Below, piece after piece: positions 14,645 to 40,233 of a stretch of DNA of 42,176 nucleotides; position 1 is the first letter of the stretch, and every line of letters begins with the position of its first letter. The translations under genes were made by a program, and so were the position numbers. The stretch is taken from sequence record SRR20825019_2882. One strand, written 5' to 3'. The notes beneath the pieces were generated by a model that searched no databases, was not told the origin of the DNA, and worked only from the letters and a program-made list of their open reading frames with translations.

Positions 14645-14879
14645 CTCGACGATATATATGTACCCCAATGGGTGGTTGACTTCACCAAGACTCTTTCTCT
14701 AACCTCTCACTCAGAAAAAAAGGAGTCTTCCGGCTGCGCTTGGTGTAGTTCCTGGAAGGGTTGTTCGTATTCTTATTGCGGAGTTATTAGTGAGACTCCA
14801 CTGCCAGCCCGAACTCCATGAAACTATCAGCCTGGTTGGCCGTCGAAGCTAGTTCTTCGGCGCCCCACCGACCATCGGA

Positions 14880-15930
14880 GGTGTGCCAGGGTGACTGCTG
14901 GGCCAGTGGTGGCCCAAGCCCTTCAGCATCAACGTAGAGGGCGGCACAGGTGCGGTTTCGACACCGCCATCTCAGGTCCCGACCGGATGATGGACTCCGG
15001 CCTGGGTGAGCCGCCCTTTGGCAGGGACCGGGTTGGTTCAGCATAATCCGGTGCCACCGGCGGTGCCCCGACTGACTCTGCTGGGCCCGCGGGGCACCGG
15101 GCGGTGCGGCCCCGGCCTTGGCCTGCCCTGCCTCGCGGGCCGTCCGGATGCTCACCGGCTGAGCAGTGGGAGGAGCGGACTGTCTTGAGCCAGCAGTTGG
15201 TGCCCGACTTCAACCGGTGCTGATGCCCCCGCCGTGGCAGCCGGAGTGGGCACTCATCACACGGCAGTGTGGACTCGTCCCGTGAGCGGTGATCCCTAAG
15301 CCATCCAATCGTACTCTAAATGCTGGCTCATTGAATGGTACATCGGCACTCGACCCGATTGATCAATGGCCCGCGCCCCGGCCAGGCCCCCCGCGTTCTT
15401 GCGCAGGGCCCCCCGGGGCCGTCCGGGGCGGGAGTCATCAGTGGCGATGGTCACCGGCCCGGCTGCCCGAGGGGGTCGGGTCCGCACTCATAATCGAAGC
15501 GGCAAGCGGTCACGCGAGCCACTGACCCGGACGATCTCGCGCCCGATCAAGTGCCGGGCCCGGACGGCAATCATCACCCTCTGGCCTGCGAGGACCTGCG
15601 TACTGGCATAGGTGCAAAGTTCCCGCTGCCCGGCCGGGTCCGGCCGAGGCGGCTCATCAGTCATGAGCTCGTCACGCCGCGGGTGGCTTGATGATTTTGC
15701 AACCGTAACTCACTCTGACCACCCTGCCAGTGCTGTCTGAAGAGTGACCGGCAGAGCCACCTACTGTCAGTCCCGCGAGCCCCGGCTGGCGGCCCGGCCA
15801 GGGCCTCCCACCAAGTCGGCTCACGCGGAGGCAGCGGGACTACGGATCCATCCCGGAACTTGATTGGGCTCACTGAAGGCCTCAGCCAGCTGAAACGCGG
15901 CTGACACCGCGGCAAGGCCGACTGCTCCTC
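14880..15930. promoter_or_regulatory. GC-rich divergent intergenic island between the BIR and PLA2 genes
   Basis: GC-rich, ggccgg-dense, no credible ORF, between two 5' ends. Confidence 0.5.
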
Positions 15931-16076
15931 CACCATACTGCCTCAGGTTGGATTAGTCTTCTAGGTGTCTTGTCAGACCTAGCACCACCAACTAGGCCAA
16001 CAGTCCCCCCCCCAACCCCCCGGGTACTCCTCACTGCTTGAGTATCGGTGATATTCCATGACAGTGTCTTGTGGTC

Positions 16077-18086: not shown

Positions 18087-18249
18087 GGCTATTATTTGTA
18101 TTTCTTGTCCGACCGTGCAAGTGTAAAGTATATGACTACCACAAACAACACCCCACCGACAGTCAAGCCGCCCCAAGCGAGTTCATCAGGTATGCTTTGA
18201 TGGAACTGGGTTACCGCAAGCTGTCCTTCAGGCTGCTGTGCAGTCGGCT

Positions 18250-18830
18250 GGCTTTGTGCAGCGTGAGAGGCGCTCGGCTCGGAGCAAGGTCCAGTCATCA
18301 GTGTCGAGGCGCTGCGGTGGCGTTGTCCGACCGGCCCCGTCCCGCCGATCACTTCAAGCTCCTCAAGCCCCCCTCCGTGCCTGGGCCGTGGACGAGGCGC
18401 CTCAGAGGCCCGGGGGCGCTCCCCGTCCCGCGGCACTGAGGCCCCCCCCAAAGGACGGTCGCGGTCCGGTCAGTGGCAGGGGACCGTTGAGTGATGAGTC
18501 GGAGGTCAGAGGAGTGCAGATGACTGGCCGCCGCACTGTGTCCCCCGGGCGGGGTTTATCGAAAGGTCACCTGATGAGACAAGGTTGGCAACAATATCGG
18601 ATTTTCGGAATACCCGCCCTGGCCCCGGCCGACTCGCCCGGGCCCGGCCGCGCCGGAGCCCGGGCGCGGCCCCCGCGCGGGCGGCCATCCCCAATGGCAT
18701 CGGCGGGCCCCGGGCCGGGTGCCGCGGGGCGCTTCCGCGGGCGGCGAGCCGGCCCGGCTGTTGGCCGAGACTCCCGCTGCGGCCGCCCTCCGACACTCGG
18801 CCGCCCTACAAGCCCCGTGTTGTGGCCTAG
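18250..18830. promoter_or_regulatory. GC-rich divergent island between HADH and the M16 peptidase
   Basis: Very GC-rich, between two 5' ends. Confidence 0.55.
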
Positions 18831-18959
18831 GTCTACCGCAGCGGGAAATCTTCCTGACAGCCAACGACTTGACCTTACTCACACGTCTTGCAAGAGCTCC
18901 TTGTCCAAAAGGAAATAAGTGATAGTGTAAACCGTATATCTGAAACTATAGTGACGGCC

Positions 18960-21900
18960 ATGTTGAAGCGCAGGAAGACTGGATCCAAAGCCGATGGTGC
19001 CCCGTCTGTGAACCTTCCTGAAGGGTGGGCTGAAGTTCAAAGGGAGGGAACTGATTTGAAGCAAGACCTCGTATTCTACCTGCACAAAAGTTCAGGATTC
19101 CGCATTGTGTTGTGCCCCGTCGATGGCCCTATCTGTAGCGCCGCCATGTTCCTCCAGACTGAAGCGAAAGACGACCGTGGACTTCCACACACTCTTGAGC
19201 ACTTGGTATTCATGGTGGGTCTCATGCTATTTTCGTATGTAGTGTTCTTACATTGTAGTGCTAGGGTTCCACCTCAACACCCCATAAGGGGTATCTTGAC
19301 AACTATGCCACCCGGTGCTTTGCAAATGGTACGAATGCCTGGACTGCTGAAGATCATACAGCGTATACTTGCGACACTGCTGGTGACGAAGGTAGGTCCC
19401 GAAGCAACGCGGATCCGTTTGAACCTGATGTTTTCATTTGCAGGTTTAATTAGGGTTCTCCCAGTCTACTTGGAGCACATATTCAAGCCCACCCTGACAT
19501 CGTCCGCATTTATTACCGAGGTCTACCACGTAGACGGTGCTGGCAAGGACCAAGGTGTTGTATACAACGAAATGGCTGGCCGCGAGAATAGCGAGGTATT
19601 GTGACAGGTCGGCTGGGCCATCTTTTCCTAAACTCACGAGGCAACTGCACCAGGGCGATTTGATGTACTTGACGGCCGCTCGCTTACTGTATGAAGGCAC
19701 AGGCTATTCCTATGAAACAGGGGGTCGCACTGACGATATTCGAACATTGACCAATGATGATATCGTTGAATACCATAGCAAGTTCTACGTCCCTTCAAAT
19801 GCTTGTTTGGTAGTGGCCGGCCAGGCCAACGTGACCGAGTTGATTAGTGCTGTCGATCGCGCTATTACTGATGGGGGCCACACCCCGATGGAGACGAATG
19901 CTTTCTTCGATCCTATTCCACCTCTAACCCAGAATAAGAGTAGTCTGGTTCCATTTCCCTCGGCTGATGGTAAGTGTCATGCCCGATATGCTATATGTTT
20001 TCATTTACGTTGTCATTTCATCCAAAGATGATGTTGGTAGTGTGATGCTATGCTGGCGTGGTCCGGATTGGTCGGATGTGCACACGCAAGTTGCAATCGA
20101 CATTCTTATGCGGTATCTTCAAGATACCGGTGCTTCACCGCTGCACCAAGTATGCAATCACTTTGTGACACTTGTTGGAGTATTAATCGTGCTGTTGCAG
20201 GCGTTTGTTGAGAGCGAGACCCCCGTGTGTTCTGATGTAAGTTGGGGATCCCTTTCTTTCAAGCAAGTCGGAATTATGCTTGCTTTCAGTGGCCTGGAGA
20301 TCAAATCGGGAGTGTCTGCAGAGGTGGGTTGAGCAAGTTGTATTGATTGCAGAGCTCTGCTGACATGCCCAAAGGATGTGGCATCAAAGGGCTGCGGTGG
20401 TTGCTTTGCGTCTGCGTGTGACCCCAACCGCGCCAAGTCAGAAGAAGAAGGAGAAGAAGAAGAAGACGACGACGAAGATGATGAAGATGATGAGGAAGAG
20501 AGCAACGATGCTATGGAAGAGGATGACATTGTTTTTGAGAAGTTTTCTCCGCAGCCAGATATTCTCGAAAATGGCGTGCTCCAAGAAATGGTGAAGAAGA
20601 CTCTGTGGACAGTCCATGATGAAGTCTTCGGATCACCTAAGGCAAAGGAGATTATGAAGCGGATTATTCATAAGCATCGGGTCCATTATATTAACGCGTA
20701 GGTGCTCTTCTTGCTTGCTTGCCAAAATACTAATGTTTTCTCTATCTACCAGGCTGGAGGCCCAGCCTACCGACCAGGTTATCGATGCGGTTGGAATCTC
20801 CCTGCTCCGCGATAGCGAGAAAGGTCTGCACTATGCTGCACAACGCATGTCAACGCTAGCAATACTCGACAAGCTCGAAAAGGAAGAAGGCTCCTTCTGG
20901 CAGCGACTGCTCAAGAGCGTTTTCTTAGAAGCCTATTGCGTTGAAGTTCGCATGAAACCAGACACATCTCTGGCTGAAGTTCGCGCGAAAGAAGTTTCAG
21001 ATAGAGAGAATGCCAGGAGCCAGAAATACGGAAAGAAGGGCTTGGAGAGTTTGTCGAAGGCCGCCGCAGATGCCATTGCCATCAACAGCGCCCCAGTTCC
21101 CAAGGATATAGCCCAAACCTATCCGCCGCTCCCCTCGGTTGAGCGAATTCCCCTTCTGAAAATGTCTTCTCGATCGGTAGACACCCCAGGAAGTTCCACG
21201 GGGCGAACCCGCCAATATGTTGGTGTAGACACGCATTTTAGGACTCTCACCATAGTAATTCCGATTGGTAACATGCCTATTGCCCTTGAGCCATATGTGA
21301 ATTTGTTCCAGGAGCTCATATTCCGCACGGACGTGTATCTGCCCGGTGGTTTAGAAATGAAGGCCGGCGCTGAACTCGAGCTTGTCTCACACAAGGATGC
21401 AGTTGAAAGGATATCCGAAGACACTCTTGCCTTCGATTGCGGAAAAGGACTGGGCCCGTCGAAGTTCACGTGTGCAAGTGCCGGTGACGTTTTCACGATC
21501 GAGGGCAAGTGCGAAATGGAAAAGTTTGAGCGCCTTTGCAATTGGGTGTCGGCTATGTTCCATCTAACGGTGTTCTCTGAAGGGCGTATTAAGACACTTC
21601 TCTCGCACTTGCTTTCAGACGTCACCGAGGAAGAACGCTCTGGAGACGATATTGTGAATCATCTGGAAACGCTGGTGTGGAGCCCCTACCTCGAGAACAA
21701 GGTGTACGGCACTGGCAAGATGCCGGCCGATGATGTAATCGCGGAGTTGCCCGTGTGCAAAGAAATGGCCCTGGGTATTTTTACGCAGAAGCCGTTCCTT
21801 ACTCACATCAAGAGCAAAATCTCCACAAAAGTAGGCCTCTGCGAGGTCATCGAATCTCTGGAGCGCGTAAGGGGAATTATTCTCTCCAACTTCACCGAGG

Positions 21901-22932
21901 CAATGGTCCAGTACAGTTCGCCTTTCCACGTGCACGCAGAGGCCGCTTCAAGTGTCTTTGAGGCGTCCTGGAACTCCATGAGGGTTTTGTCGAAAACGGC
22001 AACAGGAAACGAGCATCACCTTCAGTCTAGACCATTGCTGCCATACGAACATGGTTATCAACGGCAGTTACCCGGCAAAGATATTACATTGGTAACCCCA
22101 GTGAAAGGAAGCGAGTCCATTTATTTGAGCCAAACCGTTGCCTGTGAAATCCCCGCAGGATCTGCCGATTACTACGCCGTATGTAATTGCGAGGACCAGC
22201 ATTCCAGTACTAATGCCTTTTTTCAGGTCAAAGTGCTCTGTGAGATGTTGAGCTTCACTGAAGGTCCTATCTACCAGCGCGTGCGTGGAGCTGGTCATGC
22301 CTACGGCGCCTATGTACGTGATTGGTGGTTCCATGGCGGCCTGTGGATATTTGCTCATGTTGTTCTACCAGGTCCATCTGCAGAGCATGCATGGTAGCTT
22401 ATGCTATCAAGTTTCTGAGTGCTCCGCCGCCGGCGCATCCATAGCAGCATTCCACGATATTCTCAAGAATCTCCCTGATGATATGAATGACTTTGACTGC
22501 GATACAGCGAAATCTGCCGTGATTTTTGACATGCAAAGGTAAGGATGTCCATGGTCACTCTCACACTGAGACTAATTTTGTTCTAGGAAACGCTCTACTC
22601 CCTCTCGCATCACTGGATATTCTTTGTACTCCGTGATTTACGGGTTTGGCTCCGCTGAAAAGCGTGTGGATAGTGAGATGGCGATTGAGAAGATCTCTGT
22701 CCAAGGTGTGTGGCCTAACCTCTCCTTCCACACTATTTGACATATACGATGCGATGCAGATTTGCGCCGAGTTTATGACAAGTACTTCACCGCGTTCTTG
22801 AACCCAGGAGATCGTGTCACGGTGTGCGCAACAAGCTTGGCCAGCCAAAATGATGTCGTGAAGTCTTTGAAATCGATAGGACTTGTCCCCGTAGTCAAAG
22901 ACATCGACGCCTTGCGAGTGTGGAAGCCATAG
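18960..22932 (+). CDS. M16 (inverzincin; M16C/presequence-protease-like) zinc metallopeptidase, multi-exon
   Basis: GLPHTLEHLVFMG (HxxEH), GVVYNEM, YETGG, YHSKFYVPSN and C-terminal IYQRVRGAGHAYGA. Acidic insertion at ~20440-20525. Confidence 0.9.
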
Positions 22933-22976: not shown

Positions 22977-24449
22977 TCACTTCACGTGTGCCTCGACTCC
23001 TATGGTAAGGTAATCTCTGCTTTGCATCTCAATCAGTCTCGAGACGGTGCGGGAATACGCGAATTCCTCATCAGTAGTTCCGGCACTTTCGCCTTCTTTA
23101 GGAACGAACAGCTTCTCTGGCTCAGTCTCTGCACTACAAACCAGTTTCCGACGATGTTCATACACCTGATCCACAAACGTGATGAATCTCCTGACTTCGT
23201 TGATTGTAGACACAAAATTCAATTGGGGAATGTCGTCCACGAATATGGTGTGATACTCCTTACATATCGCGATGTAGTCGACTGCTGAAAGGGGCTGTCG
23301 GCACAGATCATCAAAGGTGAACCGGGCAACTCCATGGGCCGCCCGGGGAATATGAATGGGTCGGTTGAGCGCCACCAACGTGCTCGGGTGGGCATCATCG
23401 CCTTTCGTTACTGTTTTGAAAGTCTTATCAAGCTTGTTCGTGGATGCGGGGCCCAGGGGCGTTTGGTACACATCCGGAGTCCTGCTCCCAACTAGACGGT
23501 AATCGGTGTGCGAGTCCACACAGTGGATTGCGCAACGGTCCTTGAGAGTGTCTATGAACGGAAGGAATAACGATCGCTGCAAACCATTCTTGTATAGGTC
23601 ATCCGGTGGCCTATTGGAGGTTGCAACAACCACAGCCCCTTTCTCGAACATCGAGTCGAAAAGCCGCTTAAGAATCATGGCATCGCCGATGTCTGTTACC
23701 TGAAATTCATCAAAGCACAGGAGCCACCCCTGCGCGAGCAGCTGGTCACGAACCAAGTGAACATGATCCTCGTTCTTCTTCTGCGTTCTGGAATCCGGGA
23801 CAAGCGGTCAGAAGCAGCAAGGACACACAATGCCTTCAATACACACCTCATGTGGTGCAAGCGCTCATGCACGTCCAGCATGAACTGGTTAAAGTGGACA
23901 CGGCGCTTATTCGCCAGGGGTAGCGTATGGAAGAACAAGTCCATACACATAGTCTTTCCCGATCCAACCCCACCATATAAATACGCACCACGAGGGCCCC
24001 TCGTCGCATGGCTTGTAACTGCGGCCTTAGCTTCTTCCTCATGACCACCTCCAAGCCACCCAAACATTCCACCGCTCTTTTTCGGGGCCGCTTGCTTCGT
24101 CGGCGAAGAACTTGACCTTATCTTGCTCACGTCATTGAAGACGCTCTGGAGGACTTGAAGGGCAATAAGTTGGTTCCTGTCTTCTTGTACACGTCCCATA
24201 TCCACAAGCTGCCTGTATAGTCAACCAGAATCAGTACAAGGCTTATGTGAATGAGACTGCCACATACTTATATGCCTCAAGAGGAGGTGTTCCAACCTTG
24301 ATACCTTCGTAAAGTACGGCATTATCGACTTGGTTTTGAGGACTGAAGGTACTCAGATGCTGTACTGCTGCCGTGACTACCGCAGGCCGAGAAAAGAGTC
24401 CCCGCAACCCTAGTGCTCGCCTAGAAAGCGCGCCTTGATTGAGCAGCAT
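22977..24449 (-). CDS. AFG1: AFG1/LACE1 (ZapE family) mitochondrial ATPase, multi-exon
   Basis: Arg-rich presequence, GAYLYGGVGSGKTMCMDLFF, RVHFNQFM, LCFDEFQVTDIGDAMIL, TSNRPPDDLYKNGLQR, RRFITFVD and FAYSRTVSRLIEMQ. Confidence 0.95.
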
Positions 24450-24519
24450 GTCGTTTCACGTATTACTTGGTTTTCCTTGTTATGTATATGTATACAATCT
24501 AGTGGTTGCTGCCAATGCC

Positions 24520-25170
24520 GGGAAGCCCGGCCCGCGGCCCGGCCAGGGCCAGGGCGGCGCCCGGACTTCGGATTGAACCGTCCGGCCGAGGCCCGGCCCG
24601 GCCCGGCGGCCGTGCCCGGGGCCAGCGGCCGCGCCGGCGCTACCGCGGCTGCGGCGCTGGATGGCGCCCCGGCCGCGGCCCCGCCGACAAGTGATCTGTC
24701 AGACAGCCGAGCTGACGATCCCGTTTGGGAATGTGTCACGGTGAGGCCTCAGGCAGGGACGGGAGCATGCCCTCACATGGTCTGCTGGCCAGTCTGGCCA
24801 CCCGTGACCGCCCGTCCGACTCGACGGGGAGCAGTGAGCCGAAGGTCATGAATCATCCGAGCATGAGGGGCCGAGGTGTCGTTCATGATTAGGGTTGTAT
24901 CGATCGGATCCGCGCCCGCCCCGGCGCCCCGCCCGGGGGGGCCCATCGTCCTTGTACAGGCCGGGACGCGGCCCGCTTCCGCCGAGCCGGAGCGAACTGT
25001 CACGGCGGCTGTCGTCCGGCTGACGCCATCGGCGGTGGCACCACTGAGAGCTCGGCCCGCAACGGCCACGGACCTGGCGGTCAGTCGGACTGGTGGGCCC
25101 GCTGTGGCGGCTCACTGCGCCAGCCGCCGGGCGAGAGGCGAGGACGCGCCGAATCGGCCGACGGTCAGAG
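24520..25170. promoter_or_regulatory. GC-rich divergent island between AFG1 and the LRR-AAA-SAM gene
   Basis: Very GC-rich, between two 5' ends. Confidence 0.55.
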
Positions 25171-25258
25171 GTCGTGGGGTGCAGTGCTTCTCACACGCGT
25201 TGTTATTACCATATAGAAGTATTCTAGCTACTGCACTAATAAAATACGTTACTGTAAA

Positions 25259-28110
25259 ATGGCGTTCTTAAGTGCCAACGCCACATTTAACCGTCATCGC
25301 TCAACGTCTAGTCTGAATAACAAGTCGTTTGAAGACCACCTCAGTGAAATTGAGAATAATGTGGCTCTCTCCGTGAATCTCAGAGGGAAGATGAGTGTTG
25401 CGGTATGTTTATGCCTTTGATTTTTGATTGTCTTGGTATTCTAACGGAAGCGAACAGGAGGTAGATAGGCTTGCGCTTGCTCTTCGCCGGAATACGTCTG
25501 TTAGCTCGTTGGATCTGAGCCGGAACAAGTTTGGCGACCATGGTTCCAGCCGCCTTGTGAGGACAATGCAGGCCGGTCTCACAATTCGAATGCTTAATCT
25601 CGCTAACAATATGATATGCGGTACAGTGTTGACTCTTATGCATTGCTTGGATGCTTATCAACTGACATGTAGATGACGGAATGTTGGCGATTGCGGACTT
25701 TCTTAAGCAAGATACGTGTTTGGAGGTCCTGCTGCTAATGAATAACGATGCTGGAGATCAGAGTGCACTTCGATTTGCGGCCGCACTGCGACAAAATAGC
25801 ACCTTGAAAACGCTCAATCTAGAAAACAACGACATTTGCAGGGAGGGGGCGGAGTCATTTATAGAAGTGGTGGAGCAGGGGACATACCTTCACGAATTGC
25901 ACTTGAAGGACAACAATGTCCCGCCCCCTGTCATTGACAGATTAGATCGTCTTCTCGAATCCAATGCCGCTATCTACAAGCGCACCGAAGAACCAATGAA
26001 GGCGTTGATCATTCAAGCGGCAAATTCCGCAGGAGTGAAGGAGCACGAAAGCTGGAATGAGGGTTATTCAGGGCAGAAGGTGGCTGTTAACGAGATGTCA
26101 ACCATAATGGCTGCACTGAAGTGGAGGCCGGACCGAGAGACTAACCGGCCCTACAGAGTACTATTTGTGGGTGAAGATGGCGTGGGCAAGGCGGAGCTGG
26201 CAAGGAGAGCGGCGAGATCGATGCATATGGATGACAAATTTCCAACAATGGATCAACTCAAGGGAGAGGGTAAATACATGGAGTTTGATGTCTCCCAAAT
26301 CAACGGAATGCCGCTTATTGATGCTATGGTGAAGCGCATGAGGGTGATGTCGGGTGAGTTTGCGTGAAGTGGTAAGGTATGGGGCTGACAGATCATGCAG
26401 GCAGGAGAATAGGACCTGTGGTGTTTCTTGAAATGATAGAGAAACTCGATACCAATGCGCTTGCAAGTATCGTGAAGTCTTTTGAGACAGGAATACTCCA
26501 AGCCGGATCGTCACAGTGCGACTGTCGCAATGCCCTCTACATCACATCGGCAGTAGTTGGGTCGGAAGTGTTACGGTCCGTGCTGCAGTCCGATGCCCAT
26601 GCGCGCGATGCCCAATCTCTTGTAGATCTCGATAATCTCATGGTGGGCCCGGAGCGGAAGAGCATTCTCACTGCTCTCCAGGAAAGATCTGCCACCAAGC
26701 GACGAAAGTCAATATCTCTTCTGCCGAATTCGAACGAGAGCGCCGCAGCCCTCAACGATTTTGTTGACCCAGCAATTCTGGCTAAGTTCAACAAGGTGAT
26801 ACCCTTCTGGCCAGTGACGGAAGAAGACATGGCCGAAAGAGCACGTGGTATGCTTAAGGTTCTTCGTCGTGAGTTTATCGAGGAGCGCATATACCTTGGG
26901 TATATGGACCCTGAAGTCGTTAATATGGTTGCCGAAGGGCTTATCAAAGTTCTCCGCGAAAACCCCAGGATTTCGTATATACGCAACTTCATAGCTAAGG
27001 CCATTCAGTCTGCAGAGATAGTCCCCGGTGATGCTGTGTTGCTATATCTTGATGCTAACGGGGTCCGTTTTATTCGGAAGCAAGTGGGACAGGGTTTTGG
27101 AAGGCAGGGCTTGCGTCGTTCCAGCAAGTCGCTGAAGATGCCTGGGCAAGAGGTTCGCGAGACCGAGTTGGCGTCGTCGATCGTAAATTCATGGCAGCGT
27201 ATGACTGCCGAACGCAAGAAGACAAGCTCTCCACAGCCAAACCCCGACTCGAAGGATTCACCATCGAGTGAGAATGACTTGGAGAGGCGGTCACTTCACT
27301 CAATGATACGGCCCTCTCTTGTCAGACAATATACTGAGGACGTAGATTCGGAACAAGGTGATACAGTCGGAGACACCCTCGGAATGTCGGATCAATCGAT
27401 GATTGATAGTCCCCGCAAGTCTGTTGTCGCAAGTCATTCGGAAACGCCAGATCACGAGAGGGCTTCCCCGGAACCTGCAGTGCAGGAACGAGGAATGAAT
27501 AGCGCAGATCCTATGGTACCATCTGGTGGGCACGGCCATCGCCGCACGACATCTGGCTATAGTACATCCATGATGAGCCCCAGATACGCCTCACCCGCCG
27601 GGTCGAGTATGTAGCCTGAACGATGCTATTTTTGTGCAGACATTTACTGATCGTCCACAGAACCAACCCACTGGTCCAAGGAGGATATTGCCACCTATCT
27701 CCGAGAGAGTAACATTGATGGAGCCAGCATCACGGTAGGTTTTACTACTCGCGTGTGTGGGAAACCTTGGCTGACGATATATCAGCGGCTACTGAAGGCT
27801 GGCGTGGACGGTGAAGTGCTCATGATGCTCAACAAAGAAGAGCTCTACAGGGTACAGTATGCATTTCCTTGCCAAGCGCGCCGCCCTAATGCTGCACCAG
27901 GATCTCAAGCTGCCTCTGGGCGCGACAATGAAAGTCCTCGGAGTGAAACAGAAGCTTTTGGACGGCATGAATCAGATGGATGCGAAGGTTGAGGCTGAAG
28001 CGACTCCAACTCAAAGCCCCCCATCATACACCGTGACTATCGATCTCCGGCTAACTGGCGTAATTCTGCTTTCTATAATCGTTGCCTTTCTGGCAGGAAA
28101 GGCCATCTAA
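25259..28110 (+). CDS. RI-type LRR + degenerate ClpB-NBD2-like AAA+ module + Ser-rich linker + SAM domain + C-terminal TM helix, multi-exon
   Basis: LRRs: SLDLSRNKFGDHG, LNLANNMI, TLNLENNDI. AAA module: GQKVAV...NRPYRVLFVGEDGVGKAELAR, VVFLEMIEK, DCRNALYITS, KVIPFWPV. SAM: HWSKEDIATYL...GVDGEVLMML...DLKLPLG. TM: LTGVILLSIIVAFLA. Confidence 0.82.
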
Positions 28111-28158
28111 GCCACTTGGAATCCCAGTGATATTCGCAGCATCGTAGCGATTCACTGC

Positions 28159-29638
28159 TCATCCATCGACAAAGTCACAGATTGCCTGCACAACAAGGAC
28201 TCGTTATTGCGTGTCGCGGCCGACTGGAGAAAGCTTACCTTGGCAAACCATACTGGGCTTTGTAGTTCAGGGTAGTGCCCACCGCCCCTAAGGACGTTCT
28301 CTTTGGTTTGTCCGCTGAGGAGGCCTCGCATCGTTCCCCATTCTGTAAGGAGGGTATATTAGCAAGGACACATGGGTCTGACAAGGAAACCCACCGGTGT
28401 ATTGGTGTGCTTCCTCAGCATCTCCACGTATGAACAGCGTAGGCTGCGTTGGCTTATAATAGGGTGTCATTGCTCTGGTGTACATGGTGGAAAATCATAT
28501 ACGCACGTGCATCTCGCCCATATCGAAAGGGTCGCATCCGGCATAATAAACCTCTTGGAGGAGCGAGGCAAATGGAAATGACGCTCCTTTCTCGTAGACA
28601 CTGCGAAACACCTCAAAGAAGCCGCTGAGATATTGGTGTTGTGTCAACATTCATGTTCTTATCACTGATTCCGAATACAATGCATACCGCCGGAAACCCT
28701 TGGCAGACCGCGCAAAGTCACTATCCGTTCCATTGTATCCTTCCTCGTAGATGCCCCCGTCACTTTCATCAGGGAACATCTGCTCGTACCACGACCAGGC
28801 GACCTCCTTAGCCTTTGTGGCCAACACGATCTGCGAGACGAACTGAGAGGATAGGATACTGTGGTCCACACGCTTCGCCCATCGAAGTTGCTCCAGCCAG
28901 TCGCCCTGCGCCTCCATCCATCAATCGTCACATCAAAGCTAGCTGACCCACTTAGGAGTGGTGATAAAATACTCACCGACTGTATCACTACGAGGTGCGA
29001 AACACGCTCCACATTGTCAATGCGAGCAGCGACCTTCACAGCCATCAGGGCAGTGATTGAGGATCCAACTAAGACATAGTGGTCTCGGTCAAGCTTCTGC
29101 ACCACTTCTTCCATTGCCTCCACATAGTCCTCAAACTGAAAGAGAAATCCGTGGCTAATGGTTGAATACCCAAACCCTGCGTTAGCCGCGTGAGTACATA
29201 TCAGCAACGACGAAACGTTCCCCAAATATTCTGTCAAGGCTCACCCGGCATCTCAACCACTATCACCTCAAAGTCTTGAGCTTCTAGGGCCTGCATTAAT
29301 GGTGTATAGTGCTCCAAAGCATTGGGCGGCTCAGCGAACAGGAGAATGGTTAAGCCCCTTCGACCATTGGCCCCAGCACTCCTGACACGAACCCGTGCAC
29401 TATCAAGTGTAATGAAATAAACAGTGTCTCCCGGTGAAAGTTCTAACCCTGTGGAGGTAACGAGCATCGACGCTTCGTGGCGGGGCCGCTTAGGGGGGAA
29501 CAAAAGGAGGCGTGCAGCGTCGTAGCTGGAACCATGCGGGCCATAAAGTGCAAGAGGAACGAGAATGACGACAACCGGAACCCCAAACACCACGAGGCCA
29601 AATAAAATATACAATGCCTCTGCTGAAACCAAGTCCAT
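28159..29638 (-). CDS. Alpha/beta-hydrolase-fold protein with an N-terminal TM anchor, multi-exon (one internal junction unresolved)
   Basis: N-terminal hydrophobic helix, VVEMPG|FGYS, elbow VLVGSSITALMA, PTLFIRGD and C-terminal GGGHYPELQSP. Confidence 0.78.
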
Positions 29639-29789
29639 TCGACACCAATCTTCCTCGGCTGCTGAGTCTTCAGTTCTCAGCTAAGAGACCTACGCACTGT
29701 CTTCCCCTCCAAAATGAAACTTTATACTGATATGCCTCTTTGGGAAGGCACATTGTGGGGTTGGTGTTCCTACCGGTTGGCTTCAATTC

Positions 29790-30040
29790 GCGCAGCGACC
29801 GGCGGGTGCACCTTTGAGGTGGTTGGTTGGTACGGTCCGGTCTGCCCCGAGGGCCGGGGCCCGGGGTCGCCCCCCGGCCCCCGCGGTGCCGCGGCGTCCC
29901 ACGGGAGACAAAGAAGTTATCGAGCCAAGGCTCAAGCTTGAGCGCCGCGGGCGGGGGGGCGCCGGCAAGGAGACCGGACGCCCGGCCGGCGAGGCGGGAC
30001 GGGAAGCGGGCCGGGCCCGGCCGGGGCCGTCGGGAGAATT
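29790..30040. promoter_or_regulatory. GC-rich island upstream of the hydrolase gene
   Basis: Very GC-rich block lying 5' of the minus-strand hydrolase. Confidence 0.5.
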
Positions 30041-30127
30041 GAAAAGAATGTTTAGTGAATCATCATCATCCATTCATTGCGGTCGTAGCCTGGGCCCCGC
30101 TAATCGGATTGATCACTCCAACCAACT

Positions 30128-33100
30128 TTATTGGACGGTGCAAGCTTTCACATCGCAGCCTTTTCGCTTGAGCCTCTTGGTGTCAAACATGTCTTCAAAG
30201 AAAGTGCGGTGGGTGGTATGATTGACATCCTCTTCCTTCTTCTTTTTCTTCTTCTTCGACGACTCATTGAGGAGCCTCGTAAGAACGCCCATCTTTCCCT
30301 ATGCGCTGTTCAGAACGGACAATAAATCCTATTTTGCTGGTGTCTTTACCTCCACATCGGCATCATTGTCCACATCTGGGTCCCATAATAGCACGCACGG
30401 CTTATCAGTATACGCCAGCACCGTGTATGTACCCCGCGCTGCAGAGGGAGCAGTCAGTCCCGCAAAGTCTCAAAACCACTCGGTGAATACCTGGGTTGGG
30501 CGAGCAGAAAACTAAATTGTACTCAGGATTACTGTCTGTGTTTGCTTCAAGCTCAGCCTCAACATATGCTATCGAAAGGTTTAGGCAAATTGACGGCTGG
30601 TGCGTTCATAGATCATACCAGGAATGCCGTTCTTGTATGTAATATTTTCCCTGAGAACAACAACATCTTCCTGTTCGACCTTCCTTTGAGTTGGGTCTGC
30701 GGCTGCATTACGAGGTAAGGAACCCCCCATAGTCTCATCATCACTCATTGCACCTTTCATTGCTTTGCCCCCTTTCGTGTTCAAAATATAAAAGCATAAT
30801 GACGAATCCATGAGTTTCTCTCCTTGGAGGAAGAATCTGCGCTATGTCAGCTTCGGAAGACCCCCTGCGAGCCATAACATACTTGATGCAAGTCTTTTCA
30901 AGGACTTTCAACTTCATAGCAGGATTATCACAAAAGTGTTCTCCATCAATGCCCCCGCCTGCCCGGTCATCCGTGTCCACATCCCACTGGATCAATTGCT
31001 TGTGGTTGTCAGGTAGTGTGTGGACGGAAAGGTCACAGGTCTTCGTGGCATAAACTGTAGAATCACGGTTAGACGACTACTTACATCAAGAAACGGAAAA
31101 ACGTACTTGACAGAATGAATTTTTGCTCCTCGTTGGGAGAATGTGTGCAAGCAAGCACAATGTATTGCTCACCGTTAGAGACCCCATGGATCTCTCTGGA
31201 CACCTGCATATGGCTGTGAGGTTCTGCAGGCCACAGATCACGCGTCGTTCCGTGTACCTCCCGAGCTGGGTTGAGATATGTCTGTGCAACCACCTCGTCT
31301 TGGGAAGCCTTGAGTATCTTCGCCTTGCCTTCCGTATCTGCATGCACTGTTCAGTGTACTATCCCGTCTATTCCATACTTAGCGCTACCCTTTCTCTTCT
31401 TTTCGTCGGGGTCCAAGTTTGAAGAAGCCGCACGGGGTATTTTGAACACAAAGAAGCCTATGCTCTTGTAATTCAGCTCTTCGTGATTAATGTAGTCACA
31501 ATCAGGCTGCTGGAGGTGTATGAAAACGTCGGAGTTGTTCTCATGAACTGTGAGTAGATACTGTGGGTTGTCCATCCAGGAAAGGAGATTTCTTGTAGAG
31601 CCTCCTGCTGATACATCCTTGATCCATTCTCCCTGGACTAGCAATCAGTACCGTGTGGAGGACTGAAATGTTGGCGGTTAAGTACCTTCCTCATCACTCC
31701 AGTCCAATTGTCCTTGTGTCCTGGGAGCTCGTGGAAGCGGGAGACCACTGCCTTGGTAAAGTTTATCATGACATCCTCCAATTCCATCCAAAAGGTCGAT
31801 TTGTCACTCTCTTCGGCAACATTCAGTTGTCTCTTGAGGTCCGATGTCCAACTCTCATCTCCATTGTGCCATTTCCCTGTCCAGGTTGTGTCCCCCCACC
31901 TATCCCCCCTTTAGATATCGCAGAGAACTGTACATGTAGTTGCAGGAACTCACTGGCTTCTAAACTTAATCATACGCATTCCACGTTTCGGTTCCTTCAC
32001 ATCCAAAATTCCATATGCGTGATTCTGTTGACGGCTTTCCGGTGAGAACTCATATCGCCAAACTATTCCGACAACACTTACTAAGTAGATTCCGTCACTG
32101 TTTACCTTGTTTGACGACGTGGTATCGTCAAGAACCATGCACATTAGGAACCTATTCAACAATTGCGTCAATAATTGCCCGCATCTACCATACATACGCC
32201 GGGTACGCACTCGTTCTCATGGTTGCGAGTCAAAATCTTCCACAGAAGGTCAAGGGCTTCAGCTTCTTGCTCTGCAGCACTCTTGTCACCTCCAGTTTGC
32301 TTCACGAAAGTCGTCAGGTCCTGGAAGAAACTAAACAGCGAGGATGTGAGCAACATCGAAAAAAACACACATTCAAGCCCACATCTTCTCTCCCAAGCCG
32401 CCAGTGAGATCCGCTAGCGCAGCACTAAGTGATCCGCCCTCACTTTGTTCGTATGTTCCATGCTACGCGGTACTCGACGTCAGTGACTGGCGGATAGTCA
32501 AGGCGCAACATACAGCTTTGGCATACGCCTTTTCCATGAGCATAGGCCACACAACATCCGGTTCCGGAGAGACGCAATAAGAGGGCTGGTCTCGGCTCAT
32601 TGGGATATAGTCGTCCACAATCACCTCTTCCCACTTCCCGTTCTTGAAAAATTGACACGCAAAAAGCCCTTGTTCGGGAAAGTAACCGTAGCTCGGGGGC
32701 TCTCCCACCATGATCTGTTCCATCAGCTCCTTTCTCATCGCCACGACTGAAAGGGCGCCAATGAAGAAGTAGTTTGCAATCCCACCCTGCAAGACTGGAA
32801 AGAACTATCAGTGCCTGCATAGCCACTTCCAACACTTCATCACGTACTGTTCATGTTTCCACAGTGACGAAGGAGGTCCTCGGAGGGCTTCATGTTCTTC
32901 TTTTCCAGATACTCTGGTACTCGCAGCCATCCCGTCACCTCAGTCGCGTTTCGGGGGGGTTGCTTGGGGTCTCTGTACAAACTGGCGGCACTGGTGCGGA
33001 ACTCTTCATCAGTGAACTTGCCACTCTTCGACTCTTGGCAAGCCGCAAGAATTGCAGGGTACTTGTACTGCCTGCCTTTGTCCTTCTTTCCCTGTACGAT

Positions 33101-33143: not shown

Positions 33144-33419
33144 TGGGGAACCAGACTGTTTGGGGGACAATTGTAACCACGAAGTATTTATTCCTGCAAA
33201 CTGCCAAGCGAAGGCCCAGCGTGGGCTTTTGGCGCTGGGCAACGCCCTGGTCAGTTGCTTTGGCAGGCTCGAAGAGTAGCCAGCTGGCCAGCCGGCAAAC
33301 CTGTCGTTCGAGTCTTTGCTGTTGGTCGGAGCCAGCACCGCATTCACCGAAGTGATAGTGGAAACAGAGCAAGCTCATCTCTCCAAAGCGCTCAGACGCG
33401 TCCTCTCCAACGACCAGAC

Positions 33420-33960
33420 TAGCAGCGGCCAGTGTAGCGCGAGCGCTCGGCCACCGCCCATTGATTGGGGGTGCGGCTTGGGTGGCCATGACCGGCATCC
33501 TCGGCCGGGCCGGGGGCCGGGCCCGCGCCGGCGCCCGGCTGCGCCCGCGCGAGCGGCGCCGGGGGCCTTGGCCTGCGAGCCGGCCAGCTGCCCTCCGCAT
33601 GCACCACAGTCAATGGAGGAGGACGGGATGCCGATGATCCTCCTCGAGGATCGGATCAATCACATGGCGCAGTCCACCACCCAGCATGAATTTGTTGCCC
33701 TCACTTGCTGACCACCAATCCTCGGTCTGCAGGGTGCGTAACCCGTAGTGAGCGAGTAGTAATGGGAAACCGCTTTAATTTGCGTAGATTGACACATTAC
33801 TGAGCTTGCTTGGCGGTTGGTGCACTGGGAATGAACGCACGCGCAGGGCACAGTCCGGGATGACTCGGCACGGGGGGCGGGCGCGCGACGACCGGGCTCA
33901 CGGCAGGCTCACCACCGCGGGGCCGCGTCATTGTTAGTCAGGCTGATGACTCGCCCGGCC
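33420..33960. promoter_or_regulatory. GC-rich divergent region between the calpain-like and polycystin-like genes
   Basis: Two GC-rich blocks between two 5' ends. Confidence 0.5.
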
Positions 33961-34297
33961 GGGAGGGATTCTATAGTTGGAGCACCCAACCATCCAAGAT
34001 AGCTTTGGTGCATGATCATGTGAATTTAGAGCTATGTATGGCGACTTGTTTATTTTCTTGTGGAGGTAGGGTCGGCGGAGATGTTGCCCGGTAGAACGGC
34101 AGCCGCGCATGGCCACAACAGGGCCTCGTCAACAGAGTCATATGACGACATGAACTTGGAAGACTGGAAGGGCGCGGTAATGAGTGGCGTGGTAGTTAGT
34201 CTAGAGCTCAGGCTGACGCAGTTTTCCGCTGCAGATAGCGGACGAGGAGGATCAAGCAAACCAAGCGAGCTTGTTCAATGACTGGCTAGAGGGAAGC

Positions 34298-37200
34298 ATG
34301 GGCGGAGAGGGAGCAAGTTACGGTAGGTGTAGCATAGGAGTGAGCTTCGGTGAAGTTGAAGTCAAGATTTCTAATTTTTTTTTGTCAGGGGCTTTCAAGC
34401 GAAACACCAAGAAGTGGTCATTGCGCCACAGTAGCGTCGCCGATATGGAAGCAGGCAAGAACTACGTAGACGAGGCCAGTCATAGCATTACCGGACCGTT
34501 GGATTTGGCTGACGACTCGCATGCTCGTCTCCAAGATGGCGAAGCTGTTGAGGACTCACAAAAGCGGCACACGCGGCGTCAATCCAGCATCGCAGTCATA
34601 AAGAACGAGTTGCAGACCATCGCTCAGATTGCCACCGAGTTGGTCAAGGGAGAAGCAGCCGTGACAAAGAAGATGGAGATGGACGAAGAGACTCGAGAGC
34701 TTAAGAAGGCGCGGGAGGAATATGAGGAAGACGTGACGAGGAGGGTGAGTGTCTCGCCTTTGATGGTGAATCCTGCTCATACTGTTACGGTTAGGTTCAA
34801 GCACTCATTCGTAGAACGCTGGTGCGCAAGGAGTACCATCATGTTCGCCGAGACAAGATGATATCCTTCAACAGAGCCAAGTTAATCCGCAGGCTGAATG
34901 AACTGCCCGATGCCCGCACGAGCTATTGTCTCTTGTTCTTCTACATGATATTCTTCGCTGTTGTAATGACATATTTCCGAACATCTGTGAGCTCTGATGC
35001 TCGATATGCCTCAGGAGGGTTTATGAAGGACACCATTATGACTGAATGGTGGCAGGTGTGTGGATATGCTCTGAACTTTTTCTTGCTGCTTAGCTCTGTT
35101 TAATTAGGCTGGGGATGACGGGTATGAAGTGCGGACCGTTGGCGATTTGTATACATTCATCGATGTAGGTCGTGGATATGGTTTTATCATCCGTAAGCTC
35201 ATGCATCCAAAGAGTGCAATCCTCCAACAGTTTGAGAGTCGGTCAATAACAAGGCAGGATGGAACCGAGGATAGCGAGGTGTTCATGTGGAAGCAAGGGC
35301 AGGGATTAAATGGAGTTGTAATTGCGCAGGTAGCCGCTTTGGCATTATCGCGTAGCTTCTCAGCTGACCCTGGGCCTAGATACGAGGGAATGAGGAATAT
35401 TGCAGTGACAGGTATACCCTGACCCAGGGCACTGACTATAGTGCCAATGTCTGTCAGATGTCGATCGCCAATGGCGGCATCAATACTGAGGCATTTGGAA
35501 ACCTGACGCACAGAGACTTCAATGATTATTTTAATGGAAAAAATATGGACGCCAAGTTCTCCACGAGCGCACCATGCCCCAGCTTTTCTTTTGACACCGG
35601 GGGAGCGAGTGGCAAATGGGGAGAGTCTCACGCTATAATAGTAATGTGTAGCAGCTGTTTACCGCCTCTATTTTGCTGATGTGTTGTTTTTCAGTTTCCT
35701 TATGAAAAAGGTGACAATGAGTTCATCACGTACTTCTCCGATGCCCTTGCTTTAGTCGAGAGATGTGAATTTCTTGATCATAGGACTAGATACCTTACTA
35801 TAGAAGTGATGCTTTTCTTTGGAAATGAGATCCCGCTAGTTGCTATTCTGTGGATAACATATGAATTTTCCATATATGGGCAAGTTATTCCATCATATGA
35901 ACTCTTTATCGTAGATATTCTTCCGGCAACTTGGGGAATGTGGACTTGTGTCATGATCATGTTTTTCTCTTGCATGTTCATGGCCGCGTCGTATGTCTGT
36001 ATGTTATTATACTCGTGTTTGGAAAGGGGCATTGGGAGAACAATATCCGAGTATTTACGAAATTACTGGACTCTCTTCGATCTCATTTTTATCATCATCA
36101 TTTTTTTCTTTTGTTCATACTTCTGGGTAAGATTTCTTCCTATGTTGATGTTGCTTTTGGCTGACAACGGCATTCTTAAGGCCATTGAGTCGGTTCTTTC
36201 ACAACAGTCCGCTGACCGTAATGAATATTCGAAAGAATTCCGGAATAATATTGTATCCATCTCGGATTTATGGAGCACATTCAGGACTGTGCGAGCAATA
36301 ACTGGAGCAATGTCATTTTTGAAGATCTTGGAATATACGCGGCACCGGGGTATGCTTTCCATTCTTACACAAACTCTGTACAAGGCTGCGATGAGGATCA
36401 GTCATTTCCTTCTCACACTTCTTCTTTTCGGCGCCGCTTTCTTGGTACTCAGTGAAGAATGGTTTGGAGATCGACTGCTGAACTACAGTACTTTTGGTCG
36501 GGCTTCTATGACTTTGCTGAGAATGACATTTGGAGACTTCGAATACGAAGAATTAAGACTTGCCGCCCCTACCACCTCCGCACTCTTCTTTTGGGTAGGT
36601 TCACAACGATTAATATCATTACATTCTCTCATCTTTTGCAGGGATTTTTGATTATCATGGGCCTTGTGTTGACGAACTTCTTCATTGCCATCATTTTGGA
36701 TACTTATTCACAGGTATACGATGAGACATCTGGTTGAGTGGCACCGGGTCTGATGTTGTCTTGTGTCCACTTCAGGTCATGTCAGCAAGAAGAATGAACG
36801 AGAACATCGTCGAAGAGGCCCACCGCCAGTTTATGAACAGCTATCATGCTTTTACGAGTCACACCATCCCTGCCCAAGAACTCGCTGCCATTTTGACTTG
36901 GGATCGCCAACTATCAAGGAAACGCTTTGTCACATTGTTTGACATTCGTTCGCGGTGTGGAAGGAACAAGTTATCGGGGGAATGCCAGCTGGTATGCCAC
37001 TTGGCCACGAGCATGTCTTAAGTGTTGACAAATGTTTCGTTTCAGATTTTGTACGAGTATCATGAACAGCCGTCTGTTCCGTTTGTAAAACGTGTAATTG
37101 CCCCGGCATATCGCTACTACAAGATCAAAACGTTCACCACATATCGTCCACCATTGCCTAACTTTCTTCGAGGTACCTGGATAATATATGTCCGTGTGAA

Positions 37201-38129: not shown

Positions 38130-39332
38130 CTAGGGTATGTAAGGGTCGTCGGAGTCATCATCCATGCCATGGCTTGTGTTGCCGTATGGTGACCGCATGG
38201 AAACCATCCCATACTTCGAACCCTTGTCGCTGTGTGGGGAAATCCCTCCCCGGCCCTGGTCTGTATCGGAGAGCCGCGCGCCTTCACCTTCATCTTCCTC
38301 CTCATCGTCGCCCACTATCTGGAACACGGTCGACTCATGCACAGGGCCCTTCCTGGATATCGTCATCTCTAATTCGTGCTCGTCATCAATGTAGTCTCCC
38401 ATGTCCACAGTGGGAATGTTATGGTCCTGTTCAGCCCCGTCCATCGTGCCCTGCTGAATGTATCCCTTCCTACCAACACACACCCCGCACACCCGGCCAA
38501 ACATCATGCGGTACTGCCTGATAAGGCGAGGGTTTACGCCATATATCATCGCATTGAGGAACCCGTGAAAAGGCACAACCACAGCGTGGATAACCTCTAG
38601 AATCGGGATTCGTTCATCAGGAAAGGCTACGGTGTGAAGCCGATGCACCAGTCCAAAGCTCCGAACACCAACAAATACTAGCAAATAGAGGCTCAGTCGA
38701 GTCTGGAATGTCTGCTGCTGTTTCAGAAACTTGTTCATATTGGACTGGTCAGACACATTCTCTGACATGCGCTTGAACTTCTTCCGCAGGTCTCGAATGA
38801 TGCGCACGTACATCACGGCGCAATACATGGTGATTATCACAAGCGGGGCGTAAAATAATGCCCAGCGATAAACCTGGCACACCCCATGATCTTTTACCCA
38901 ACACCACGTATCAGTCTCTCCGAAACAGTTTGAAGCTCCGATAACAATGCTTCCTACCAGTGGGAACCCCCAAGAAGCAATATGGTAATACTTTTCCCTC
39001 TGGCGGGCTTTGTCGCGCTGGTTCTGCACGAATAGAACAAACATGTTTGCAGCAATGCACGCCGTCCATACGAACCCAGCCACGTCGGCGAACTGCATAA
39101 GTGCCGCAGTGACCCTGCACATAAGGTCCAGGCTCGCCAAGCAGAAAGCCAGTCCCGAAAAGAAATTTGCAACAGCCAGATAGGATACCAGTTTTGCTGA
39201 ATACGACTTCAGCTCTCGGCATGTGAAGTAGTTTACCACCACAAATAACGCCCCAGCCATGGAAAACGCTCCGCCAGTCCCAACAGCCAGTCGTATAAGG
39301 GTGTCGTATTCACCATCCTCTTCCGACGTCAT
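38130..39332 (-). CDS. 7-TM GPCR of the cAMP-receptor-like (cAR/Crl/GCR1) family, intronless, with an acidic C-tail
   Basis: Seven hydrophobic segments, KLVSYLAVANF, CRVTAALMQF, WTACIA, YHIASWGFP, WCWV and GFLNAMIYG. Confidence 0.9.
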   Translation of the reverse strand: MTSEEDGEYDTLIRLAVGTGGAFSMAGALFVVVNYFTCRELKSYSAKLVSYLAVANFFSGLAFCLASLDLMCRVTAALMQFADVAGFVWTACIAANMFVLFVQNQRDKARQREKYYHIASWGFPLVGSIVIGASNCFGETDTWCWVKDHGVCQVYRWALFYAPLVIITMYCAVMYVRIIRDLRKKFKRMSENVSDQSNMNKFLKQQQTFQTRLSLYLLVFVGVRSFGLVHRLHTVAFPDERIPILEVIHAVVVPFHGFLNAMIYGVNPRLIRQYRMMFGRVCGVCVGRKGYIQQGTMDGAEQDHNIPTVDMGDYIDDEHELEMTISRKGPVHESTVFQIVGDDEEEDEGEGARLSDTDQGRGGISPHSDKGSKYGMVSMRSPYGNTSHGMDDDSDDPYIP

Positions 39333-39479
39333 TGGTTTGCTCTGTTTCAGGGGCTCGCCCTGGTCACAACATGAACCAGTTATGAAACACGTTTTATTTC
39401 AGTGTTATGCTTGGGAGCTTTGAGGAGTGGCAGTTACTATCGAGGGGGTGTAACGGGGACTAGGCCTGTTTGACTCAGA

Positions 39480-40230
39480 ACTTGCGAGCCGCCAGCCGGC
39501 GCGGACCCTGACCGCGGAGCACCGGCTGCACATCCGTCATCAGGTGGCAGCCCGGCGTGCCCATGGATGTCCGCGGTGAGCTCTTCAATTCCGGTACCGG
39601 TCTGCTGGACGTCAACCCGCTCGGGCGACGGTTGCTGCCCCTGGGCTCCCTCGGTCAGTGGCCGGCCAATTAGTTCGGACGAGGTCGCGAATTTCTGATG
39701 CCGAGCCGGAGTGGCAGTCAGCCAGTGCCAGGCCGACTCAGACGCCGGCGGGGCCGCTCCACCTGGGTTCAGTTCACCGTGTGCCCCGCCCGGCGGCGCC
39801 TCAGTCAGTGCCGGGTCGGGCCGGATCCCGCCACCTGCCGTCAACAGCACACCCGCAGGGCAATTCCGGTTCGGATCAGATTCGGATGCCGAGTGCGGCT
39901 GTCAACACGGCGGGTCGGGTGGCCGGGACCGGACTGCTGGTGGTACCGTGGTGTCTCTCAGCAACACCAGTTCCCGGCATAGTCCCCCCCACCCGGCCCC
40001 CCACCGACATTTGCACAGCCACACCAGGCCGGCCTCGGCCCCGAACCCGGGCGGAGAAGGATTCTTTTTCTTTCTCGGCCTGGCAGTGGACCAGCCGGAT
40101 GACATTGCGACCAGGCCGGGCCGGGCAGAGCCGGCGCCACACATGCAGCACTTCCCGGGAAAGGGGGGGCCGGGTTATGGCCCGCGCTTCGCGTCTACCA
40201 GTGGGCCCCGCCAGTCTAGCCCGACTTTGG
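39480..40230. promoter_or_regulatory. GC-rich divergent island between the GPCR and CLN3
   Basis: GC-rich, no credible ORF, between two 5' ends. Confidence 0.5.
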
Positions 40231-40233
40231 AGG

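Follow-up and report, generated by a model that had tools for sequence, protein, structure and literature searches.

A seven-exon gene joining leucine-rich repeats to a ClpB-type NBD2 module with substituted catalytic motifs and a predicted tail anchor

Several eukaryotic proteins outside the classical chaperones carry domains derived from, or similar to, ClpB's second nucleotide-binding domain (NBD2). Skd3/CLPB of animals and choanoflagellates is reported to consist of a mitochondrial targeting sequence, ankyrin repeats, one NBD2-type domain and a C-terminal domain, and to be an active, mitochondrial protein (PMC7343390). The D2 domain of the plant protein SMAX1 is described as ClpB-NBD2-like, with a degenerate Walker A, no bound nucleotide and, where the pore loop would be, a degron-related motif; the domain serves as a docking surface (PMC12639087). 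A Sordariales orthogroup, OG0007227, is listed with N-terminal ankyrin repeats, AAA, UBA_4, Clr5 and ClpB_D2-small domains in an NLR survey, which set it aside (PMC12258605). Here we describe a gene at positions 25259-28110 of sequence record SRR20825019_2882, a stretch of 42,176 nucleotides of eukaryotic DNA with short GT..AG introns (the window). Its product, which we call the LRR-Clp protein, joins ribonuclease-inhibitor-type (RI-type) leucine-rich repeats (LRRs) to a single NBD2-type module in which the catalytic motifs are substituted, followed by a linker, a region resembling a sterile alpha motif (SAM) and a hydrophobic C-terminal tail. The protein would best be explained as a catalytically dead, Clp-derived, membrane-tethered scaffold, a reading to which we give a probability of about 0.5.

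The central module is colinear with the NBD2 of ClpB, Hsp104, Hsp78 and ClpC over about 320 residues, from the helix preceding the P-loop to the D2-small subdomain. It differs from ClpB/Hsp104-type proteins in being a single module without an N domain, NBD1 or middle domain, and from ClpB-type NBD2 in the substitution of six elements, in an insertion of about 37 residues (405-441) in the large subdomain, and in its fusion to LRRs, linker and anchor. Descent places it in the Clp/Hsp100 NBD2 family; its motifs are not those of a working Clp ATPase. It resembles Skd3 in placing an N-terminal repeat domain before one NBD2-type module and differs in having LRRs for ankyrin repeats, no clear presequence, dead motifs, and a SAM-like region and anchor. 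The closest functional precedent, by analogy, is SMAX1/D53, in which a ClpB-NBD2-derived domain is found without catalysis or pore loop. SMXL proteins are described in that source as nuclear and soluble, with a double Clp-N, D1, M and D2 plan and neither LRRs nor an anchor; unlike the D2 of SMAX1 as described there, the LRR-Clp protein retains the Walker A glycines and lysine. OG0007227, compared by description only, is likewise a eukaryotic fusion of repeats to a Clp-type AAA module outside the classical chaperones, with other repeats and accessory domains. Given these precedents for a dead NBD2 (SMAX1/D53) and for repeat-NBD2 fusions (Skd3, Sordariales), the architecture is less isolated than first supposed.

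The coding sequence (25259..28110, plus strand) has 847 codons in seven exons: 25259-25402, 25458-25620, 25673-26353, 26401-27606, 27661-27734, 27786-27851 and 27901-28110. The six introns (25403-25457, 25621-25672, 26354-26400, 27607-27660, 27735-27785 and 27852-27900) are all GT..AG. Splice models were built by enumerating donors and acceptors from the ATG at 25259, and those free of stops form a small set, 839-850 codons in length, that terminates at 28108-28110. The 847-codon model was chosen because of joints in contigs from the only public run that contains this stretch (X1), which were compared over 25100-28300. These contigs skip exactly six segments, each GT..AG, corresponding to the six introns. 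A single contig of 2475 nt (25460-28187) crosses five of the joints and bridges exons 2-7 in one continuous frame; the first joint is found in a contig of 199 nt that spans 25251-25401 and has a short side of 27 letters at this joint. From these intron-less joints we infer that X1 is cDNA. A contig spanning two genes would by itself be no proof of one transcript; the frame is continuous through every joint, and a division into two or more genes was rejected because the spliced contig bridges exons 2-7. The locus holds a single expressed gene with seven exons, and the single transcript assumed in the initial annotation is thereby supported, with no splitting of the locus seen. The start codon is fixed at 25259 because an in-frame stop lies upstream (25214-25216) with no ATG in between. 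The mRNA probably starts about 8 nt before the ATG, at the cDNA 5' end near 25251, which defines a 5' untranslated region (UTR) of 25251..25258; the start of the 199-nt contig is preceded by a non-genomic loose end of 21 letters, which we take to resemble the tail of a template-switch oligonucleotide. The implied 5' UTR is thus just about 8 nt long, unless the contig beginning at 25251 represents a truncated cDNA.

The module consists of a large (alpha/beta) AAA+ subdomain of the Clp NBD2 kind (residues 233-465; 26062..26807, plus strand), which intron 3 divides at a point between the two Walker motifs, and a C-terminal subdomain of D2-small type (residues 466-553; 26808..27071, plus strand), the latter identified from PDB alignment, structural model, Foldseek and Atlas. 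The two halves, in exons 3 and 4, were searched separately against the PDB with phmmer. Exon 4 (residues 335-576) matched 13 sequences at E ≤ 10, of which 12 were ClpB; the best match, to ClpB 729-857, had an E value of 5.2e-5, the D2-small part aligned to ClpB 750-857, and a second, weak stretch corresponded to the region from Walker B to sensor-1. Residues 125-196 of exon 3 (exon numbering) matched the ClpC D2 (504-568) with E 1.2e-4 and human CLPB with E 1.4e-4. A profile was then made from 122 NBD2 sequences, namely 120 short NBD2-type proteins and both modules of P0001, a double-NBD2 protein discussed below. The spliced protein scored 43.9 bits against it (E 1.7e-12), the best of 2000 shuffled sequences scoring 8.3 bits, and the alignment is colinear, with profile positions 55-228 on residues 233-404 and 227-342 on residues 442-553, on either side of the insertion. 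A phmmer search with the spliced AAA region matched all 122 sequences (best 54.6 bits, E 6.6e-17), and pairwise comparisons place the module as ClpB-like, not as a separate subfamily. Neighbours of exon 4 in the language-model Atlas fall in AAA_2/ClpB_D2-small clusters (score 0.94, 186 of 256 features common); the same search with exon 3 gave no usable match. On these alignments, residues 233-553 are a true homologue of the ClpB/ClpC second nucleotide-binding domain, D2-small included. The initial annotation had proposed colinearity with the ClpB NBD2 and its small subdomain; this holds in PDB matches to both halves and in the profile, and its aligned strings and Walker A coordinates were correct.

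An AlphaFold model of exon 4 (residues 331-559), with 53 NBD2 sequences as the input alignment, has a mean predicted local distance difference test (pLDDT) of 75.3, with low confidence in the insertion. Its C-terminal subdomain is modelled as helices and a terminal beta-hairpin (pLDDT 84-95). Two model strands (31-34 and 37-40) form a predicted hairpin ahead of the sensor-1 strand (45-48), a weak indication given that the ClpB alignment guided the model. A beta-hairpin before sensor-1 is a feature of the HCLR clade of AAA+ proteins. A single-sequence model of exon 3 was unusable (pLDDT 40.5). Torsins, which have inactive AAA-like partners, were considered as another source for the module; neither exon half matched the Torsin profile PF06309 at E ≤ 10 and the N-terminus of the protein is polar, and the assignment was rejected.

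All six of the catalytic or translocation elements that define an active Clp NBD2 are substituted, and the Walker A lysine is the only survivor among their key residues. Walker A (residues 269-276; 26170..26193 on the plus strand, as are all motifs here) reads G-x-x-G-x-G-K275-A276 in the profile alignment: the glycines and the lysine are intact, and the Mg-binding Thr/Ser has become Ala276. The pore-loop equivalent (residues 314-323; 26305..26334) has lost its aromatic residue and is three residues shorter in the profile and pairwise alignments; the GYVG position reads I318-D-A-M, with Asp where the aromatic would stand. In Walker B (residues 336-341; 26418..26435) the Asp is Glu340 and the catalytic Glu is Met341. 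The sensor-1 Asn (residues 378-381; 26544..26555) is replaced by Ala380 in the profile alignment or by Val381 in the MAFFT alignment. The Arg-finger position (26784..26786) is Lys458, and at the sensor-2 position (26955..26969) the protein has R-E-N517-P-R where G-A-R-P is canonical. These motif states are consistent across the PDB, profile and MAFFT alignments. It is established in AAA+ enzymology that substitution of the Walker B Glu alone abolishes hydrolysis, and the change to Met341 therefore predicts loss of ATP hydrolysis. We infer, on what we regard as sound grounds, that the module is catalytically dead, a pseudo-ATPase. The erosion of Walker A to GKA, of Walker B, of the Arg finger and of sensor-2 had been recognized at the outset; the pore loop, which had been described as deleted, is instead shortened and replaced.

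These substitutions bear directly on two other explanations. The protein might be an active, non-canonical ATPase or disaggregase of the Skd3 type, in which LRRs have taken the place of ankyrin repeats. The plans run parallel, with a repeat domain, a single NBD2-type module and a C-terminal subdomain (PMC7343390), and human CLPB is among the PDB matches of exon 3. With Met341 in place of the catalytic Glu, the pore aromatic lost, and sensor-1, Arg finger and sensor-2 all changed, an enzyme of this kind is very improbable. An adaptor role would require no catalysis: the dead NBD2 would join or dock onto an active ring of the Hsp104/Hsp78/ClpB type, or another AAA+ ring, and recruit it to the membrane, in principle much like the inactive AAA-like partners of Torsins. 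Elements of the fold that form subunit interfaces appear to be kept (the predicted pre-sensor-1 hairpin and D2-small), and the module groups with ClpB and does not form a subfamily of its own. A subunit of this kind would donate an Arg finger, however, and here that position is Lys458; no partner was identified, leaving the adaptor unlikely.

The N-terminal part of the protein is made of RI-type LRRs (residues ~35-200; 25361..25965, plus strand), which extend across introns 1 and 2 and were recognized from their repeat register and by phmmer against the PDB. Five canonical repeats start at residues 63, 91, 119, 147 and 175, an exact period of 28 residues, and one degenerate repeat precedes them. 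Matches to the first 100 residues of exon 3 in the PDB include a designed RI-like LRR protein (1.4e-24), LRRC34 (4.8e-14), NOD2 (1.6e-12) and ribonuclease inhibitor (2.5e-8); two Pfam LRR_6 matches, at 21.1 and 19.2 bits, are under the cut-off of 23.4. The tandem LxxLxLxxN repeats of 28-29 residues that define RI-type LRRs are therefore present in the predicted protein, as the initial annotation had said. A mitochondrial presequence was considered for the N-terminus and rejected, as a matter of prediction only: this end of the protein is polar, with a low hydrophobic moment and no amphipathic character.

Between the module and the C-terminal region lies a Ser/Arg/Gly/Pro-rich linker, defined by composition (residues 556-731; 27078..27606, plus strand), that has no Pfam match. 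It contains four [RK][RK]x[ST] motifs, where shuffled versions average 0.68 and 23 of 5000 reach four. The 176 residues are probably disordered and a target of basophilic kinases.

The SAM-like region (residues 733-803; 27663..27975, plus strand) is spread over exons 5-7 and thus cut into pieces of 24, 22 and 69 codons, and each of its profile signals is weak. In the PDB, exon 5 matched ETV6 at the first helix of its SAM domain, with E 0.005 for triple-repeat fusions and 1.7 for a single copy; exons 6 and 7 searched alone gave no matches. Intron 5 (51 nt) is open in frame, and 27663-27851 was scanned unchanged as one stretch, for which the sole Pfam family was SAM_PNT (E 0.11, helix 1 only). 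Profiles were also made from Pfam-verified bacterial segments: for SAM_2, from 29 alphaproteobacterial loci (one of 30, L083, was left out because its translation was not clean), and for SAM_1, from six loci, this family occurring in 5 of the 401 genomes sampled from another phylum. With hhalign, residues 739-804 aligned colinearly to the whole SAM profile over 53-57 columns, with P values of 0.006 (SAM_2) and 0.017 (SAM_1); 9 of 400 shuffled sequences reached the observed score, and among 20 windows along the protein the two over the SAM-like region ranked highest. LRSAM1 and SARM1 are known proteins that combine a repeat-type sensor domain with SAM-mediated assembly; neither is known to carry an AAA+ module of Clp type or to be tail-anchored. 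As a separate observation, SAM_2 was found in 40 of the 401 alphaproteobacterial genomes sampled, in most cases where an open frame of about 1100 residues begins, and one genome had 14 matches.

The protein ends in a hydrophobic helix (residues 829-844; 28051..28098, plus strand) recognized by hydropathy. The Kyte-Doolittle maximum, 2.29 in the 19-residue window beginning at residue 829, belongs to the only strong peak in the protein, at about residues 822-847. The helix is flanked by R828 and K845, and three residues follow the hydrophobic run before the stop at 28108-28110. A single hydrophobic helix at most ~30 residues from the C-terminus and a polar N-terminus without a signal peptide are the features of a predicted tail anchor.

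The combination of LRRs, a P-loop module and a SAM-like region next to a membrane anchor invites comparison with NLRs. The protein might be an NLR-like sensor, in which a ligand bound to the LRRs frees the AAA+ module for nucleotide binding and oligomerisation, and polymerisation of the SAM domain signals at the membrane. Proteins of the NLR/STAND type, such as NOD2 and NLRP3, do pair RI-type LRRs with a P-loop NTPase; the LRRs described here resemble those of NOD2, NLRP3 and ribonuclease inhibitor; the SAM-like region adjoins the anchor; and, with the Walker A lysine and glycines kept, nucleotide binding without hydrolysis is conceivable. The NTPase is nonetheless a Clp AAA+ module and not NACHT or NB-ARC. 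The Pfam families of the latter two gave no match at E ≤ 10 on the exon halves, the NLRP3 rows among the PDB matches of exon 3 cover the P-loop only (E 0.003, with no stretch passing alone), and a STAND assignment was rejected on the absence of profile support and on best matches that are Clp throughout. The order of the domains is also opposite, LRRs being C-terminal in NLRs and N-terminal here, and the protein has no death-fold or TIR effector. Moreover, changes have hit residues that NLR-type switches need as well (Thr of Walker A, Asp of Walker B, the sensors), the neighbouring genes are of housekeeping type without an immune cluster, and no paralogue occurs within the window. With a non-STAND NTPase and a reversed order, "NLR-like logic" is an analogy and not a finding, and an NLR-like sensor is unlikely. 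Of the membrane-anchored pseudo-ATPase platform that the initial annotation proposed, the eroded, Clp-derived module stands; oligomerisation, ligand sensing and the NLR-like part are hypothetical.

Sequence searches found no orthologue. When exon 4 (residues 335-576) was run exhaustively with HMMER against 1.84 billion cluster representatives, one protein came out at E ≤ 1e-3, the marginal match P0001 (E 5.9e-4). This is a bacterial-looking protein of 819 residues whose N-terminus is hydrophobic and which carries two canonical NBD2 modules in tandem; a sole match with ordinary motifs and a double NBD2 means that no orthologue was found. The arrangement of P0001, a double NBD2 without NBD1, is in itself an unusual Clp plan. 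A word-index search of longer proteins with exon 3 gave 4472 candidates, none at E ≤ 1e-3. A metagenome scan with exon 4 gave 492 pattern matches, and a scan of genome contigs with P0001 gave 33; none was confirmed in either. The literature search, which covered the text of papers, found none that unites a ClpB-type AAA+ module, LRRs, a sterile alpha motif and a tail anchor. The LRR-ClpB-SAM-TM (transmembrane) architecture, proposed from the start as unprecedented, was accordingly met in neither sequence searches nor literature, and there was no sign in them of a widespread annotated family. At present sampling the gene appears as an orphan, for which fast evolution and an unsampled lineage are both possible.

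An orphan of this kind could be a young or decaying lineage-specific gene that is expressed with little or no function while its protein drifts. The absence of an orthologue among the 1.84 billion representatives fits such a history, as do the loss of every catalytic motif and the coding differences between X1 and the window. X1 differs at three sites: one at 28126, in the 3' UTR, and two in the coding sequence, at 26512 (S367L) and 26708 (K432N), both nonsynonymous and both within AAA-module loops of low conservation. A pair of polymorphisms is too small a basis for judgement, however, and the frame stays open for 847 codons over six introns that are spliced correctly, the LRRs keep a perfect period, and the hydrophobic core of the AAA module still yields 54.6 bits against ClpB. 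We regard decay as rather improbable.

The scaffold reading would account for the gene as follows. In order toward the membrane, the protein would present five or six RI-type LRRs, the dead AAA+ module, the 176-residue linker, a probable SAM domain and the anchor, and nearly all of the 828 N-terminal residues would be cytosolic. The Clp module would neither hydrolyse ATP nor thread substrate, and would serve as a rigid surface for interaction or assembly, much as the dead D2 of SMAX1/D53 does. The LRRs would bind another protein; close to the membrane, the SAM-like domain, if it is one, would cluster copies there, and the linker would probably be phosphorylated by basophilic kinases.

A number of points weigh against this reading. 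The lost activity, the topology, the role as a scaffold, the clustering and the phosphorylation are all read from sequence features. X1 is not on record as RNA, and its identification as cDNA comes from the joints. In a scan of the exon halves one at a time, the Pfam AAA_2 profile reached just 15.1 bits, over its positions 77-136, and 12.8 bits, over positions 5-41, where the cut-off is 27; on the same halves PF10431 (ClpB_D2-small) gave no match at E ≤ 10. The top Foldseek match of the exon 4 model is the NBD2 of T. thermophilus ClpB (E 1.3e-9, template-modelling score 0.56-0.61), with E. coli ClpB, ClpC1 and human CLPB next in rank, but the model was built on a ClpB NBD2 alignment, which makes the match partly circular, supportive and not independent. 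When the SAM_2 profile was run with hmmsearch against the spliced protein and 2000 shuffled sequences, the protein was unlisted at E ≤ 10. The sub-threshold signals for a SAM domain at residues 733-803 are weak but consistent, and we consider such a domain fairly likely; of the two C-terminal elements first annotated, the hydrophobic anchor is borne out by the hydropathy maximum, and the SAM domain is left with these signals. The argument for purifying selection is the intact 847-codon frame, both coding differences being nonsynonymous and no orthologue having been found. Finally, the intact P-loop glycines and lysine make nucleotide binding, and hence a switch function, possible.

Taken further, that last point leads to a new class of membrane-anchored platforms, in which the NBD2 would be a nucleotide-binding, non-hydrolysing switch controlled by the LRRs, with SAM polymerisation as the read-out. 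This we think improbable. If true, it would be a sensor resembling those of innate immunity, convergent with NLRs and built around an AAA+ core that is not of STAND type.

Pfam assignments elsewhere in the window describe an ordinary eukaryotic neighbourhood of housekeeping type, with no immune-gene cluster. They comprise a UBA-UBX protein (1939-3180, plus strand), a divergent AFG1-like ATPase upstream of the LRR-Clp gene (22977-24205, minus), a polycystin-type cation channel (35806-36651, plus), a G-protein-coupled receptor of Dicty_CAR (cAMP-receptor) type (38130-39332, minus) and CLN3 (40661-41476, plus). The convergent neighbour downstream is a gene of the alpha/beta-hydrolase fold. A CT..AC joint in X1 contigs (28186-28238 and 28662-29638) marks an intron of a minus-strand transcript, which overlaps the 3' UTR of the LRR-Clp gene. 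On the plus strand, 18888-22397 holds long open frames of 238 and 560 residues, apparently one multi-exon gene; Pfam assigns them no family at E ≤ 0.001, and a word-index search of longer proteins gave no relative. Islands rich in guanine plus cytosine (GC) lie between genes, at 5551-6650, 10151-11100, 14801-15950, 18151-18900, 24451-25250, 29701-30150, 33351-34000 and 39401-40300. They are 0.45-1.15 kb long and 63-70% GC, with a CpG observed/expected ratio of 0.8-1.1, in a window of 52% GC, and the one at 24451-25250 ends just upstream of the start codon at 25259. The idea that they form a repeat family was rejected: only short low-complexity matches are common to them. Scanning the window for Rfam families, tRNAs and tandem repeats gave nothing relevant.

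The general importance of the gene is uncertain, since no orthologue was found and its function is deduced from sequence, and it has no bearing on a long-standing open question. If the scaffold reading is true, the gene would provide, beside SMAX1/D53, a second independent case in which a ClpB-type motor domain has been reused as an interaction module, here within a membrane-tethered protein that carries LRRs of receptor type. It would widen the repertoire of pseudo-AAA+ proteins, and would offer a natural example of what the Clp fold contributes once catalysis has been lost.

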